The notes beneath the pieces are model-generated. The model made no database searches. It was given only the letters and a program-made list of their open reading frames with translations, and was not told where the DNA came from. DNA of 52,139 bases from a virus (Duplodnaviria > Heunggongvirae > Uroviricota > Caudoviricetes): positions 1 through 52,139 of the IMG/VR virus record IMGVR_UViG_2541047752_000007; one strand, given 5' to 3'. A program made the translations under genes and the position numbers. Below, one piece after another: positions 2,552 to 7,662 of the stretch (positions are counted from its first letter, which is position 1; every line of letters starts with the position of its first letter).

Positions 2552-3973
2552 TTAAAAAGATGCGTTGCTCTGGCTGTTTCGTGGGGAGAATCGACTTGCC
2601 GCCGGACGTTGTTGCATTGACTGAATGCAAGCGGACGCCGCGCGGGCCTGGTTGCATGGGATGATGTTGCCGTTATCGTCAAACCGCTGGTAAACAGTCC
2701 CCGTTTTCCCGTGACGGTTTTTTGAAACGATGATCTCCATATATTCGCGGGCAACCGATTGTTCGTTGTAGTAGCCGTCGCGGTAGACCATGATGATCCG
2801 GTCTGCGTCCTGTTCAAGATTACCGGAATCACGCAGATCAGAATTGTTCGGGCGCTTGTTCGGTCGTTCCTCAACGCGGCGGGATAATTGCGCCAGTGCC
2901 GCCACTGGCACGCGCAACTCTTTCGCCATCATTTTCAATGACCACGACAATTGCCCTACGGCGAGATCATGACGTTCGGCCTTAGCCAGTTTCATTAACC
3001 CGATATAGTCAATCATCACCATCCCCAGGTTAGGATGGTCCTGTTTCATCCGTTCGACGGTGGCGCGTATTTCCTCGACCGTTAACTGCGATGCGTCAAC
3101 AATCCACACATCGAGATCGGCAAGGGCACTCATTCCCTGGGTGACGTGCGCCCAACCTTCGTCATCCAGTTTTACCGGATTACGTAGGCAGTCGGTTGAT
3201 AAATTACCAGCGCCAGCTATAGCGCGTTCAGTCATCTGATCGAGTGACATTTCAAGCGTGAAGAACAAAACGCCAACCCGCTGATCTTTACTGCCAGGGT
3301 AAGGGCGCTCAGCAGCAGCGCGGGCAATCGCCAGCGCCAACGCAGATTTACCAGACCCAGGGCGTCCGGCGAGAAGTACCAAATCAGTAGCGTTAATACC
3401 GCCTAACATTTCGTCGAGCGGTTCTATCCCTGTTTTGATGTTGTCAGAATTGACACCGCATTCCATGCGCTTGCTTAAAACCTCTGTGTATTCCTGTACC
3501 GCATCGCGCAACAGAACAGGAATGATCTTGTCTTTAGTTGCCTTTAATTTTGAATACCGGGAATCAAAATCTTTCATCGTCTCTTTGACGACTTCAAGCG
3601 TCCCCGTTTCCAGCTTGTAGCGCATGTCGTCGATTAGTTCCAACATCTGCCTACGCTGGTGTTCTTCACGTAGTAGCTGTGCGTACCCTTTCAGGTTGGC
3701 AGCAGAAGGGCACGATCGCGCCGTTTGCATCAGCGGAACAAAGTTTTCATTGCCAATCTCATCGCCAACCAATAACGCGTCGATAAGATTCCTGTTTCTG
3801 GCTTGCGCCCGGATAATTTCAAACGCCCGCTTATACAGCGGAATAGTGAACACTTCAGGATCTAGTGTAGCGAGAACATCTTGCGCGTTAGGAGTGAGGC
3901 CGCCTAATAGCAGCCCGCCGATAACTGACGCTTCACGTTCCTGCCGTAGTGAGTTTATTTGCTCAGTTACCAT
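2552..3973 (-). CDS. DnaB-like replicative DNA helicase
   Basis: 473 aa; Walker A GRPGSGKS, IIVSKNRHGKTG and other DnaB C-terminal motifs; GGAGGT RBS; about 30 aa C-terminal extension. Confidence 0.9.
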   Translation of the reverse strand: MVTEQINSLRQEREASVIGGLLLGGLTPNAQDVLATLDPEVFTIPLYKRAFEIIRAQARNRNLIDALLVGDEIGNENFVPLMQTARSCPSAANLKGYAQLLREEHQRRQMLELIDDMRYKLETGTLEVVKETMKDFDSRYSKLKATKDKIIPVLLRDAVQEYTEVLSKRMECGVNSDNIKTGIEPLDEMLGGINATDLVLLAGRPGSGKSALALAIARAAAERPYPGSKDQRVGVLFFTLEMSLDQMTERAIAGAGNLSTDCLRNPVKLDDEGWAHVTQGMSALADLDVWIVDASQLTVEEIRATVERMKQDHPNLGMVMIDYIGLMKLAKAERHDLAVGQLSWSLKMMAKELRVPVAALAQLSRRVEERPNKRPNNSDLRDSGNLEQDADRIIMVYRDGYYNEQSVAREYMEIIVSKNRHGKTGTVYQRFDDNGNIIPCNQARAASACIQSMQQRPAASRFSPRNSQSNASF

Positions 3974-3991
3974 TATGTCATTACCTCCGGT

Positions 3992-5110
3992 TTACAAAAT
4001 GGAATATTCAGGGTAATAAACAAAGCGCCCAATTTCCCCATGATCCGGGCTGTAAATAATCACCGCTGCCAGACGCCGCGACCGCCAGCCGCCATTAGTT
4101 GAATATGCGTCTTTGCCAGCTAATGTGCCGTGGTGCTCAACTATTCCAAGTGATGTTTCAACAACTGATTGATGGTGCAGATGTCCAGTGTGAGCGTAAA
4201 CAGCCACAGACCTCCCGAAATCCTCCCGCCAGTCAGATACGCAAGCCGACAATAAATTTTCCGGCTTTTTGATAGTGTGCCCGTGGTGGTAAGCAAGGAA
4301 TGTTTTGCCGTACTGTGTGTGGTGGACGATAGCAGGGGACACATCAACAGTTACGCGCGGTTCATCTTCGTAAAAAGCCGCCAGCGCCGCACGTAGCCAA
4401 ATCATGCCAGACTGATCGTGATTGCCTGATAGTACCTGGATTTCAATATCCTTATGATTTAACAACATCTTTCCTACCGCCAGACGTACCGCTCGGATCG
4501 CTACATAGACAAGTTTTGCATAGCGTGAATCGCAATCCAGTACGTGATTGCTTGATGGCGTAACTGGCAACAGCCCGTCAGTGTGAAGAACATCCCCACC
4601 GAGAAGCAAAACAGCTTTTTCAGACATCGGCGCAGCGCCCACCGCGTAGTCAAAGAATTCATTCAACACGCGTTCAGCGATCCCAGTGTCGTAGCTCTCG
4701 CCGCATTCAGCTTTATGAGCAAGCGCCCCGATATGCAGATCAAATACCGGATAAAGGGCCAGGCTTTTTTGAAAATCAATTTCAGGCACTGGCACGGCCT
4801 CCGCGCGTGGTATTTCTTCCGTGAATGCGTCGCGGGCAGCTTCCATTAGCCTTTCCATTTCATCACGGTCACGGGCAGTTTTAATCCAGCGCATGACCGT
4901 ATTACCAGCCTTATCGACAAGAACAGATTCACCAGTAATGCCAAAACCAGGCGCGCGACGCGTTGATATTAAACCGCGTTTCGCCAGTTTTGCGCCTAGC
5001 CGCTCGACGTTGCGTTTTGACATGCCATATTTTTCAGCGATCTGCTTGTACGTTAAACCGTTGTTATATTCAGCGATCAATTGCTCATCGCTGATTTTTC
5101 TTTGCGACAT
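3992..5110 (-). CDS. HTH domain fused to calcineurin-like metallophosphoesterase
   Basis: 372 aa; N-terminal LTYKQIAEKYGMSKRNVERL HTH; phosphoesterase motifs FDLHIG, GGDVLHTDG, SGNHD, YHHGH, HTGHLHH. Confidence 0.6.
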   Translation of the reverse strand: MSQRKISDEQLIAEYNNGLTYKQIAEKYGMSKRNVERLGAKLAKRGLISTRRAPGFGITGESVLVDKAGNTVMRWIKTARDRDEMERLMEAARDAFTEEIPRAEAVPVPEIDFQKSLALYPVFDLHIGALAHKAECGESYDTGIAERVLNEFFDYAVGAAPMSEKAVLLLGGDVLHTDGLLPVTPSSNHVLDCDSRYAKLVYVAIRAVRLAVGKMLLNHKDIEIQVLSGNHDQSGMIWLRAALAAFYEDEPRVTVDVSPAIVHHTQYGKTFLAYHHGHTIKKPENLLSACVSDWREDFGRSVAVYAHTGHLHHQSVVETSLGIVEHHGTLAGKDAYSTNGGWRSRRLAAVIIYSPDHGEIGRFVYYPEYSIL

Positions 5111-5143
5111 AATGTTATTTCCTCATGTTTACATTTTGTATAT

Positions 5144-5866
5144 TTATTGACAACAAACAATCTCTTTATATGTTTCTTCTACCATGTCGAATACTTCCGG
5201 CCTGTAATAAAAAAATTCAGTGCTACCATCAAACTTAACAGGGAAGTTTATTTTATAGTCACTGAAAGCATCGTGCATTTTGCTTTCTATTTCCTGCATA
5301 ATCTCAGTAGGCCCATTCCATGTTTTAACTACCTGTAAATCAGTCAGCCTTACACCTGCCTTACGAGCACTTTTAAATACTCTGTTCCTCCTTTCGTTCT
5401 CTTTTACGCTTACACCAATTTTCATTTGTGTAGGCACTTCAAGATCATCAACCATGATGTAAAGTTTTCCGTTGTAGTGTGATAAAAACCCGTATTTAGC
5501 GCATTTCGGGCAACCGCGCCCGCTCTTAATGTCTCTAGGTTTAGCCGACCACTCATGATCACAAACCTTGCAGCGGCATAATACTTTTGTACTGTTATTA
5601 ACTATTTCAACCAGCACTTCAATATCAGGATTAACCTTAGCAATAGCCGATATTTGTTCTTCATGCGATAACTTCATATTCCCAGCGCATTTCTGGCAAC
5701 CACGTCCATATTTAATATTGCTAGGTGTAGCCGACCATTCATGGTTACAAACTTTGCAGCGACATAATACTTTTGTACTGTTATTAACAATTTCCCCTAA
5801 CACTTCAACATCAGGATTAACTTTCGCGATAGCTGCAACTTGTTCTTCATGTGTTAACTTGCGCAT
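5144..5866 (-). CDS. T5orf172 (GIY-YIG-like) domain protein with duplicated N-terminal zinc ribbon
   Basis: 240 aa; two copies of HEEQxAAIAKVNPDxEVLxEIVNNSTKVLCRCKVCxHEWSA...GRGCxKCA; C-terminal GKLYIMVDD...KIGVS...TEFF matches T5orf172 pattern. Confidence 0.5.
   Translation of the reverse strand: MRKLTHEEQVAAIAKVNPDVEVLGEIVNNSTKVLCRCKVCNHEWSATPSNIKYGRGCQKCAGNMKLSHEEQISAIAKVNPDIEVLVEIVNNSTKVLCRCKVCDHEWSAKPRDIKSGRGCPKCAKYGFLSHYNGKLYIMVDDLEVPTQMKIGVSVKENERRNRVFKSARKAGVRLTDLQVVKTWNGPTEIMQEIESKMHDAFSDYKINFPVKFDGSTEFFYYRPEVFDMVEETYKEIVCCQ
5490..5866. repeat. intragenic tandem duplication, about 180-bp unit x2
   Basis: 5570-5700 and 5750-5870 are near-identical (e.g. gcagcggcataatacttttgtactgttattaac vs gcagcgacataatacttttgtactgttattaac). 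Confidence 0.8.
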
Positions 5867-6005
5867 CGCTCCAACTCCTTAAGAACATCATGCGCGCTAC
5901 AACGCAAAAACCCACCGCGACACCCGTTTGCACAGGTTGCAGTGTCTTATTGCGTCAGAGACGCCATCAGGTGGCTAATTTTCGATTTACAGAATGGTAG
6001 GTAGG

Positions 6006-6107
6006 TTATGGATTGATTAGCAGGTACAGACCGCCGAACAAGGCGACGTTAACAGCGATTGCCGCAGCGATGGCAAAAGCCAGGGCGAAAACGTGTTTAC
6101 CGTCCAT
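6006..6107 (-). CDS. small hydrophobic peptide (33 aa, one predicted TM helix)
   Basis: Hand-translated MDGKHVFALAFAIAAAIAVNVALFGGLYLLINP; GAGAGGA RBS about 8 nt upstream; below ORF-track cutoff. Confidence 0.35.
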   Translation of the reverse strand: MDGKHVFALAFAIAAAIAVNVALFGGLYLLINP

Positions 6108-6240
6108 TTTAAAATCCTCTCTGTAACGCTCTATAACGAGCTAATCGCAAAAAGGTAAGCAAGTGTAGCACCACATGCGATTTAGCTCGCTGGTGAGGTT
6201 GTTTTGTGGGTAATTTTGGATTTTTGCGGATCGTGATTGG

Positions 6241-7293
6241 TCAAAGAACGCCAGCGCGCGTATCACGTAGCGTTTTTGGTTTAAGCAGGAAATCAAGTGT
6301 CGCGGTGAAGCCATCGCCGAAGTAAAAATCTGAAGCCGTGTTTTTGAACGTTTCGAAGTAGGCGACAAAGCCGTTAATGCTTTTGTCTTTCAGGTAGTCA
6401 GTGAACGCATAGATCTTGCGTTCAAGATCCCGATCCAGTTCGGCAGGTGGTAACAGGCCGTCAAACGTGCTGTTAAATGCTTCCACCACGTCGGCAGCGT
6501 TTACAGTGGCTGACAGTTTGCGCCATTGTTCAGCATCAGTCAGATACCCATCAAATTTAGTTACCCGGCAAATGTTGATAGGCTTAGGTACTCCACCACG
6601 GCTACGCCATTGGGTTAAAGCCCACTCAATTACTAACGTGATCTCATTCTCCGTATACGCTTTACGTGTTTTTGTTTCTGTCAGTAGTTCTACGAATGGC
6701 TTAGCATCACGACATTTGCATCCTGCCTTGTCGTTGTAGAAGGCAAGGCAACGCAATGCCGCTTCGTTTACGCCATCCTGATTGACCATTTTTTGTTCAT
6801 TTTCGACAATACACGAAGTGTATATATCTTTTTCTCTTTCTTTTTCTACTTCTAATTCTAATTCATGACCCTTTCCTGACCCGGTCATGACCCTATCATG
6901 ACCTTTTTGTGTTGGATTGATTAACTTTTCTAATTTTAATTGCTCCTTCGCTGTGTTTATGGCGGCCCTGTAAGCGCTTTTAGAAGTCATTGATTGGTCC
7001 AGCCTTTTCAATAACTTTAAACAAGTTATGTGGCCTTGAGAACATTCAAACAAACCAATTTCGATGAAGTATTTCATCATTTCTTCTATACGTTTTTCAG
7101 TAGATCCGACGTTTCGAGCAATGATTCTCGCGTCATGTCGTAGGTCAAAAGTCAGATTGTGCTGATCTACGTCATAAGTTATTAGTTCGAGGCAATACCA
7201 ATAAAGCCCGTACCCTTCCAGGCCATAATCTAACAAAACGTTTTGAAGTTTTTCATCGCGGTTCGCATCGCTGTCATGCTTAAACCACTTCAT
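6241..7293 (-). CDS. phage replisome organizer / replication initiation protein (DUF4373-like N-terminus)
   Basis: 350 aa; N-terminus MKWFKHDSDANRDEKL...GLEGYGLYWYCLELI typical of Lin1244-like N-domain; GGAGGG RBS. Confidence 0.6.
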   Translation of the reverse strand: MKWFKHDSDANRDEKLQNVLLDYGLEGYGLYWYCLELITYDVDQHNLTFDLRHDARIIARNVGSTEKRIEEMMKYFIEIGLFECSQGHITCLKLLKRLDQSMTSKSAYRAAINTAKEQLKLEKLINPTQKGHDRVMTGSGKGHELELEVEKEREKDIYTSCIVENEQKMVNQDGVNEAALRCLAFYNDKAGCKCRDAKPFVELLTETKTRKAYTENEITLVIEWALTQWRSRGGVPKPINICRVTKFDGYLTDAEQWRKLSATVNAADVVEAFNSTFDGLLPPAELDRDLERKIYAFTDYLKDKSINGFVAYFETFKNTASDFYFGDGFTATLDFLLKPKTLRDTRAGVL

Positions 7294-7296
7294 AGA

Positions 7297-7554
7297 TCAT
7301 CCCTCCGGCAACATCACTACATAGACATCACTGAATGCATCAAGACGACAAACAAATCCTTTATCCATTAACGCGGCGAAGGCATCATGTACCGTATGAA
7401 CAGGAAGTTCACACATTGCGGCTACTTCTTTGCGTGATGCATCATGTACCCGTCCTTTGTTATCTGCCTTTTCAGCCAGAGCCATTAAGACAAGTTTTTG
7501 AATCGGGCTATTAAGTTTTACGTTCCATGCTTTACTAATCATGTTTATACTCAT
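7297..7554 (-). CDS. winged-helix DNA-binding protein (HTH_36-like)
   Basis: Start moved to ATG 7554 (GGAGA RBS); KLVLMALAEKADNKGRVHDASRKEVAAMCELPVHTVHDAFAALMDKGFV resembles HTH_36; first gene of leftward operon. Confidence 0.5.
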   Translation of the reverse strand: MSINMISKAWNVKLNSPIQKLVLMALAEKADNKGRVHDASRKEVAAMCELPVHTVHDAFAALMDKGFVCRLDAFSDVYVVMLPEG

Positions 7555-7662
7555 CGCATTTTCTCCTATGGTTAGAGTGAACGCGCGGGCGGGCATCCCA
7601 TTAGCATTAGATAGCAGTGACTGACCGCTCAACAGATCCCGCCGTTGCGTGATATTTGTTTT

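Follow-up and report, generated by a model that had tools for sequence, protein, structure and literature searches.

A T5orf172-type gene with a diverged, copy-number-variable zinc-ribbon array at a cassette slot of an mEp021-like coliphage

HEGs (homing endonuclease genes) of the T5orf172 type have been described in the lytic vibriophage ICP1 and in a wider survey, in which 200 of 229 such genes carry zinc-finger domains of the CapR, DUF723 or DUF4379/4397 types, often several per protein, and in which they sit at the boundaries of genetic exchange near essential genes (PMC10448857). The degenerate nucleotide repeats within these HEGs recombine, one example being a 228-bp in-frame deletion in ICP1 gp174 (PMC10448857), and arrays of CapR-like domains have been read as NUMOD-like (PMC12350094, PMC10448857). 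CapR itself, the repressor of the capsid operon that is encoded by the Vibrio cholerae phage satellite PLE, derives from ICP1 T5orf172 HEGs, and EMSA with Cys-to-Ser substitutions has shown that its four cysteines are needed for sequence-specific DNA binding (PMC8096241). For the origin-directed T5orf172 nuclease Odn (ICP1 Gp88), DNA cleavage depends on a conserved glutamate, as judged from an E180A mutant (PMC8263062). Neither of the words ‘temperate’ and ‘prophage’ occurs in the paper by Barth, Dunham & Seed 2023 (PMC10448857).

The locus that we compared with these systems lies in a window of 52,139 nucleotides, i.e. the whole stretch of viral DNA analysed, which is that of an mEp021-like temperate coliphage; its first 25 kb are 86–88% identical, over 77–86% of their length, to the relatives compared (mEp010, mEp554, mEp044, mEp515 and mEp013). 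These mEp021-like relatives belong to the mEpimmI group (PMC11893012), and the mEpimmI genome paper mentions neither zinc, homing, T5orf172 nor GIY-YIG, so that it holds no earlier description of the gene (PMC11893012). The features of the locus are collected in Table 1. As in ICP1 gp174 and gp165 (Netter 2021, PMC8096241; PMC10448857), domains of the CapR/DUF723/DUF4379 type, often repeated, stand at the N-terminus and a T5orf172-type domain at the C-terminus, and, as with the ICP1 HEGs, the gene is free-standing and adjoins essential genes; judged from one genome pair, it may also lie at an exchange boundary. It fits the description given by Barth et al. 2023 (PMC10448857) point for point and the differences are modest, one of them lying in the host, a temperate mEp021-like coliphage or prophage as opposed to the lytic vibriophage ICP1. 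With a probability of roughly 75%, we consider this to be a free-standing gene of homing-endonuclease type from the T5orf172 branch, which carries an old module array and of which the window holds an allele contracted by unequal recombination.

Table 1. Positions in the window of the gene, its parts and the cassette that contains it
Feature	Position	Strand	Basis or remark
Nuclease-like gene, 240 aa, two zinc-ribbon modules + T5orf172 (GIY-YIG superfamily)	5144..5866	-	Intact ORF
Shine-Dalgarno sequence AAGGAG	5875..5880	-	8 nt upstream of the ATG, within the cassette; read from the sequence
Module 1 (codons 1-62), putative ligands C37, C40, C57, C60	5681..5866	-	Pfam DUF4379 + CapR, model
Module 2 (codons 63-124), putative ligands C99, C102, C119, C122	5495..5680	-	Profiles, model, DNA painting
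C-terminal domain (codons 125-240, 116 aa), predicted GIY-YIG fold, T5orf172/MUG113 type	5147..5494	-	
Unit-deletion junction tract	5613..5670	-	Parental units B and C identical or nearly so; DNA painting, indel relative to E. coli FAH
Accessory cassette (ORF + own ribosome-binding site)	5149..5892	.	Homology breakpoints against mEp010 and mEp554
Mosaic boundary, ~150 bp beyond the 3′ end of the gene	4998..5152	.	Sliding identity and mismatch positions against the E. coli FAH prophage

Tandem Repeats Finder reported a single array, a tandem direct repeat at the 5′ end of this gene (5498..5860), with a period of 186, 2.0 copies, 82% matches, no indels and a score of 509, and a second repeat search agreed with it (two copies of 177 nt, 82%, spacing 186). 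The two tandem units noticed in the first-pass annotation are thereby borne out, and the repeat, in which one module finds the other by tblastn with E = 3e-31, is real and well above chance; the same tblastn search with the modules found no third copy elsewhere in the 52-kb window. The dimensions first given need correction, however, as the units in codon register are in frame and 186 bp long rather than 180 bp, and together cover 372 rather than 360 bp. Nor are the copies nearly identical, as had been claimed: they agree at 147 of 186 nucleotides (79%) and at 48 of 62 amino acids (77%), their 39 differences fall 10/7/22 on codon positions 1/2/3, and the longest exact run common to both is 26 nt. 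By the NG86 method, dN is 0.12, dS is ~0.97 and dN/dS is 0.13. At 79% identity and with a dS of ~0.97, the units are therefore old and diverged.

Tandem repeats are prone to mis-assembly, and an array expanded or collapsed in this way had been raised as a concern for the present gene. With 39 differences between the units and no shared run longer than 26 nt, the copies are resolvable by short reads, and 11 contigs drawn from NCBI, ENA and Logan encode the identical 240-aa protein (WP_021528819.1 of E. coli HVH 110); in addition, the deletion junction described below is clean and in frame. The concern is excluded in practice, and we give an assembly artefact a negligible probability.

Two further observations were made on the repeated region. 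The 14-nt motif GCACTTCAAGATCA occurs three times, at 5434-5447, 5614-5627 and 5800-5813, with spacings of 180 and 186 nt, and the former spacing may be the source of the earlier figure of 180 bp. The third copy of the motif lies inside the nuclease domain, which opens (..LSH..11 aa..DLEV) much as a module does (..LSH..13 aa..D[IV]EV), and this copy may be either a vestige of the junction between module and nuclease or the product of chance. An antisense ORF at 5568..5882 on the plus strand was considered as a coding sequence and rejected as a by-product of the repeat with nothing in its support.

The domain content of the protein was assessed with profiles, both on the window protein and on 54 homologues aligned over the nuclease domain. 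DUF4379 (PF14311, ‘probable treble clef zinc finger’) matched the window protein in two stretches with 56.9 bits against a Pfam cutoff of 24.5, and CapR (PF21817) likewise in two stretches, covering both modules, with 39.4 bits against 24.2. Taken alone, the protein stays below the gathering cutoffs of T5orf172 (PF10544, 18.1 against 20) and MUG113 (PF13455, 20.4 against 22.3), and an NCBIfam search of it returned nothing meaningful; against PHROG 681 (phrog_681, ‘endonuclease’), it scored E = 4e-47. At a profile match threshold of E <= 1e-3, all 54 homologues match both DUF4379 and CapR, MUG113 is matched by 43 of them (best E = 1.8e-8) and T5orf172 by 39 (best E = 2.2e-9). Profiles and homologues together bear out the view, already taken in the first-pass annotation, that two zinc-ribbon modules precede a T5orf172/GIY-YIG-like C-terminal domain, and the motif CRCKVCxHEW...GRGCxKC given there was found in both units.

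The AlphaFold2 model computed from the alignment of the 54 homologues has a mean pLDDT of 87 and a pTM of only 0.51. It consists of two copies of a treble-clef ribbon, each made of helix plus three strands (in module 1, H6-16, E20-22, E33-37, E43-46 and H48-52), followed, after a linker modelled with low confidence (residues 125-127), by a C-terminal alpha/beta domain with the GIY-YIG fold, so that the predicted layout is one of ‘beads on a string’. When the complete multi-domain model was searched against the PDB with Foldseek, nothing reached E <= 0.001, and the top hit, which alone is informative, was the DUF4379 protein 6yxx_E2; 6sga_Fd, also a DUF4379 protein, was among the best matches to solved structures.

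The module cysteines, W44, P48, K52 and G56 are invariant in the 54 sequences, as are Y136 (the Tyr of the first strand), K149, G151, R159, E194, H198 and E217 in the nuclease domain. Over a set of 401 modules, each of the four cysteine positions (C37, C40, C57 and C60) is kept in 389–401, and variability peaks in two patches (27-31 and 45-55), set against zinc ligands and a hydrophobic core that are fixed. Matched by position, R159 and E217 would correspond to the Arg and Glu that are catalytic in GIY-YIG enzymes. R159 lies 8 residues past the glycine of ‘KIG’, which we take to be the same spacing as that from G19 to R27 in I-TevI. In I-TevI, one of the GIY-YIG homing endonucleases of phage T4, the zinc finger is a distance-determining linker and DNA is bound by the HTH. 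The order of domains in I-TevI is the reverse of that in the window protein, with its nuclease at the N-terminus, and the first motif of the window protein reads KIG rather than YIG.

E217 would also be the counterpart of Odn E180 (PMC8263062), a correspondence of sequence position as opposed to residue-level structural alignment. Odn and the window protein both have a T5orf172-type domain with conserved, putatively catalytic Arg and Glu residues; however, Odn carries a RepA_N DNA-binding domain and has an anti-satellite role, whereas the window protein carries zinc-ribbon modules. PLE CapR shares the module family (PF21817) with the window protein, but it is a repressor with no nuclease domain, whereas a GIY-YIG-type domain, together with the presumed catalytic residues, has been retained in the window protein. 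The cysteine pattern also differs, being CxxC-16-CxxC in the window modules against the CxxC-24/26-CxC reported for CapR (PMC8096241). By analogy with these proteins, we infer that the zinc-ribbon modules bind DNA and set the target specificity, for which the NUMOD-like reading of CapR-like arrays (PMC12350094, PMC10448857) is a further ground as regards binding, and that the C-terminal domain cuts DNA.

The module profile also found proteins on IMG/VR contigs (L027-L068, many of them 80–197 kb long) in which arrays of one to six modules are fused to a C-terminal domain other than T5orf172, with the motif FDFY...IEYDGxQH. Among five of these proteins checked with Pfam, one (L032) gave a weak match to DUF2726; L028 and L066 of the same set have additional HTH-like regions. 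The fusions match the CapR-like/EDxHD-Vsr-like homing endonucleases known from group I and II introns of phages, in which three to five CapR/DUF4379/DUF723-like modules of ~60 aa are followed by a nuclease domain of ~100 aa (PMC12350094). Those enzymes, some of which are intron-encoded, have a Vsr-like (PD-(D/E)xK) nuclease, in contrast with the GIY-YIG type of the window protein. With the same module fused to two C-terminal types, the binding module is shuffled between at least two nuclease folds.

The first-pass annotation had expected the copy number to vary between isolates, and it does: related phages and prophages carry one, two, three, four or six modules at the same slot. Specifically, there is one module in mEp013 (178 aa), two in the window (240 aa), three in E. 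coli FAH (307 aa) and six in mEp021 (495 aa), and a single 90%-identity cluster holds alleles of 178, 240, 307 and 374 aa, all at this slot. Copy-number polymorphism is thus present among near-identical alleles, which have one, two, three or four modules. Close relatives on IMG/VR contigs have one, three or four modules and, across 121 proteins (the query and the 120 homologue clusters that matched best), two modules occur in 18, three in 57 and four in 46. This series at one slot, partly in a background of >99% identity, is fuller than that known from the ICP1 HEGs.

The three-module form, with units that we term A-B-C, is the commonest allele, on 176 contigs compared with 11 for the allele of the window. 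The genes of the window and of FAH are identical at 721 of 723 nucleotides apart from one clean, in-frame indel of 201 bp (67 codons), which corresponds to the middle module B plus a linker of 5 aa; gp174 alleles of ICP1 differ in a comparable manner, by a 228-bp deletion that runs from repeat to repeat and keeps the frame. Module 1 of the window is identical to module A. To place the junctions, alleles with one, two, three and four modules, whose C-terminal domains are identical at 349–351 of 351 nucleotides, were painted at the DNA level against units A, B and C. Module 2 of the window proved to be a B/C chimera, of B type over the first ~10 nt and of C type from nt 68 onward, and the window allele is thus a B/C crossover; the one-module allele is a crossover between A and C, and P0134, with four modules, has the form A-B-(C/B)-C, an unequal-crossover duplication. 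At the crossover junctions, the tracts of homology are 8 to ~56 nt long, in agreement with homologous or unequal recombination and not with simple slippage. A second two-module allele, P0031, is 94% identical to that of the window and has a different B/C junction, and therefore reflects an independent deletion.

These alleles bear directly on the proposal in the first-pass annotation that a recent tandem duplication, or ongoing slippage, of a single 180-bp unit made both ribbons in the window isolate. Duplications of this kind do occur in the family, as in P0134 and in gene mEp021_12 (locus 5999-7486 of mEp021), where units 5 and 6 (residues 258-379) have 94% DNA identity and a dS of 0.10 and are a truly recent unit duplication, unlike the pair in the window. 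The window units are likewise tandem, in frame and without indels, but their identity of 79% and dS of ~0.97 contradict a recent origin, and so does positional orthology: first modules have their best match among the first modules of other proteins in 100 of 124 cases and last modules among last modules in 87 of 123, while only three of 397 modules have their closest relative within the same protein. Unit 1 of the window is orthologous in position to the first module, and unit 2 to the last, in many homologues, so that the duplication which separated the two is older than the diversification of the family. The FAH allele, which is 99.7% identical and one unit-sized indel apart, argues in the same direction, as its middle module B differs from A and from C along most of its sequence and cannot stem from duplication of either window unit. 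We consider a recent duplication very unlikely to explain the window pair.

The window allele is best read as a one-unit, 201-bp contraction of the common A-B-C form, and a deletion through recombination between B and C across their near-identical 5′ parts explains it. That the change was a loss and not a gain is suggested by parsimony and by allele frequency (176 against 11 contigs). The one- and four-module alleles each fit a single unequal crossover from A-B-C.

The genomic setting of the gene was examined by comparison with relatives that lack it. It lies in the replication region, where on one side it is adjoined by a 372-aa phrog_704 gene, exonuclease/metallophosphoesterase-like (3992..5110), and on the other by a replication gene of Lin1244 type (6241..7293). 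Homology to mEp010 ends at window position 5148 and restarts at 5893, the slot in mEp010 being empty (~10 bp, its locus 4003-4012), and mEp554 has identical breakpoints (5148/5893) with a Bro-N/KilAC gene in the slot (its locus 3483-4226). A set of 35 complete E. coli genomes carrying the slot was compared: the zinc-ribbon gene is present in 12, the span is of empty length in seven, most of the remainder hold BRO, KilAC, Rha or Ant genes, and one holds a DUF559 gene. The DUF559 gene in the slot of E. coli M15 (351 aa, a Vsr-like nuclease, its locus 1189-2244) may be a second, unrelated type of homing endonuclease at the same site. The breakpoints are fixed, and the slot is a hot spot for cassettes. 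Given the precise breakpoints, the empty or alternative slots and the ribosome-binding site of its own, the gene is therefore an ORF-precise accessory cassette, and its presence or absence at a single defined site, in genomes that are homologous otherwise, is as expected of an HEG. Between the window and mEp013 or mEp021, the nuclease domain is 76% identical, with a dS of 1.7–2.6, and the surrounding blocks are ~84–93% identical.

The mosaic boundary (Table 1) was located against the closest prophage, that of E. coli FAH, to which the window is ~100% identical from ~4998 to ~8350 and 88–96% identical over 3100-4997, in a comparison of one genome pair. In the same single pair, in which the tract is very asymmetric, there are 0–2 mismatches over 4998-7116 and about 1 per 10 nt over 4784-4997.

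Several features of the neighbourhood were noted in addition. A promoter and terminator scan of 4900-6400 found sites no more numerous than expected by chance, and no Rfam family was found at gathering thresholds in the whole window. The ~350 bp of non-coding DNA between the cassette and the replication gene (5893-6240) are 87–93% conserved in every related phage of the comparison, the ones with an empty slot among them, and contain no above-chance promoter or terminator and no Rfam family. In mEp021 (locus 4342-4845) and mEp010 (locus 2305-2895), an HNH ‘homing endonuclease’ gene separates the helicase gene from the 372-aa gene and is absent from the window (~4002-4016), which makes this a second presence/absence nuclease slot at ~1.1 kb from the first. 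Further along, 6763-7559 covers the 5′ part of gene 6241..7293 and most of a 111-aa ORF (7297..7632), i.e. the central replication-initiator region; no DNA homology of this segment to the corresponding loci of mEp021, mEp010, mEp554 and mEp013 was detectable, and it is nearly identical to the FAH prophage, with five mismatches. It is a swapped module, possibly the part that determines origin specificity. Finally, the 3′ 430 nt of the zinc-ribbon gene, which comprise the nuclease domain and a portion of a module, have ~71% DNA identity to genes in many lytic rV5-like coliphages (Vequintavirinae, genomes of about 137–143 kb), and the same sequences occur in several records that bear the label ‘Campylobacter phage’; this suggests exchange between temperate and lytic phages.

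These data are consistent with the following mechanism for a homing-endonuclease-type gene. The CapR/DUF4379 modules, each of ~62 aa, would bind DNA and choose the target, and a flexible linker would join them to the GIY-YIG domain, which would nick or cut DNA nearby. In a relative without the cassette, the break would be repaired from the cassette-bearing genome, whereby the gene and some of its flank would be copied, and such copying of flank during HEG repair would leave a mosaic boundary like that at 4998..5152. The length of the array shifts by unequal homologous recombination between partly identical modules, and gain or loss of a module may alter the length or the sequence of the recognised site. 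As Bro-N/KilAC, Rha and Ant genes share the slot, recombination in the flanks could also explain presence and absence without homing.

The gene could alternatively be a domesticated, moron-like accessory gene instead of a selfish one, acting as a sequence-specific nuclease against competing phages or satellites, like Odn, or as a DNA-binding regulator, with an array that tracks a changing target. Regulators have precedents in CapR and in the autorepression of I-TevI. Domestication overlaps with the homing-endonuclease reading as regards architecture and array dynamics, and the variable patches at 27-31 and 45-55 are as expected for diversifying target recognition, but the invariant, putatively catalytic Arg and Glu make a role as a pure repressor unlikely. 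Both T5orf172 and CapR domains have been co-opted in conflict between phages and satellites (PMC8263062, PMC8096241, PMC10448857), whereas PADLOC gave no convincing defence-family match here (best match PDC-S57, E = 0.007), and we set aside the idea that the gene belongs to a catalogued defence system. Although the slot otherwise holds cassettes of regulator or antirepressor type (Bro-N/KilAC, Rha and Ant), presence or absence at a precise site by essential replication genes, together with a mosaic boundary such as that seen in one genome pair, is the classic HEG pattern, and we regard domestication as rather unlikely.

A more specific proposal concerns the array itself, which might be a modular DNA-reading device in which each module reads a short segment through patches 27-31 and 45-55, so that the number and order of modules set the target. 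We put this forward as a tentative idea, with the odds clearly against it. If it were true, the alleles with one, two, three, four and six modules would differ in cleavage specificity and gain or loss of a unit would amount to retargeting; the array would then be a compact, evolvable recognition scaffold with a logic comparable to that of C2H2 zinc-finger arrays.

In itself the finding is ordinary, as both a repeated zinc-finger array and repeat-to-repeat recombination have already been described for lytic vibriophages. What the present locus adds is, first, that the T5orf172 family is placed in temperate mEpimmI/mEp021 gut coliphages, which the published genome paper leaves unmentioned, and secondly an unusually clean natural series, with one to four modules in a background of >99% identity plus six in mEp021, and with its junctions mapped. 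For this poorly characterised class of nucleases, such a series could reveal the effect of module number on DNA binding and on the specificity of cleavage.
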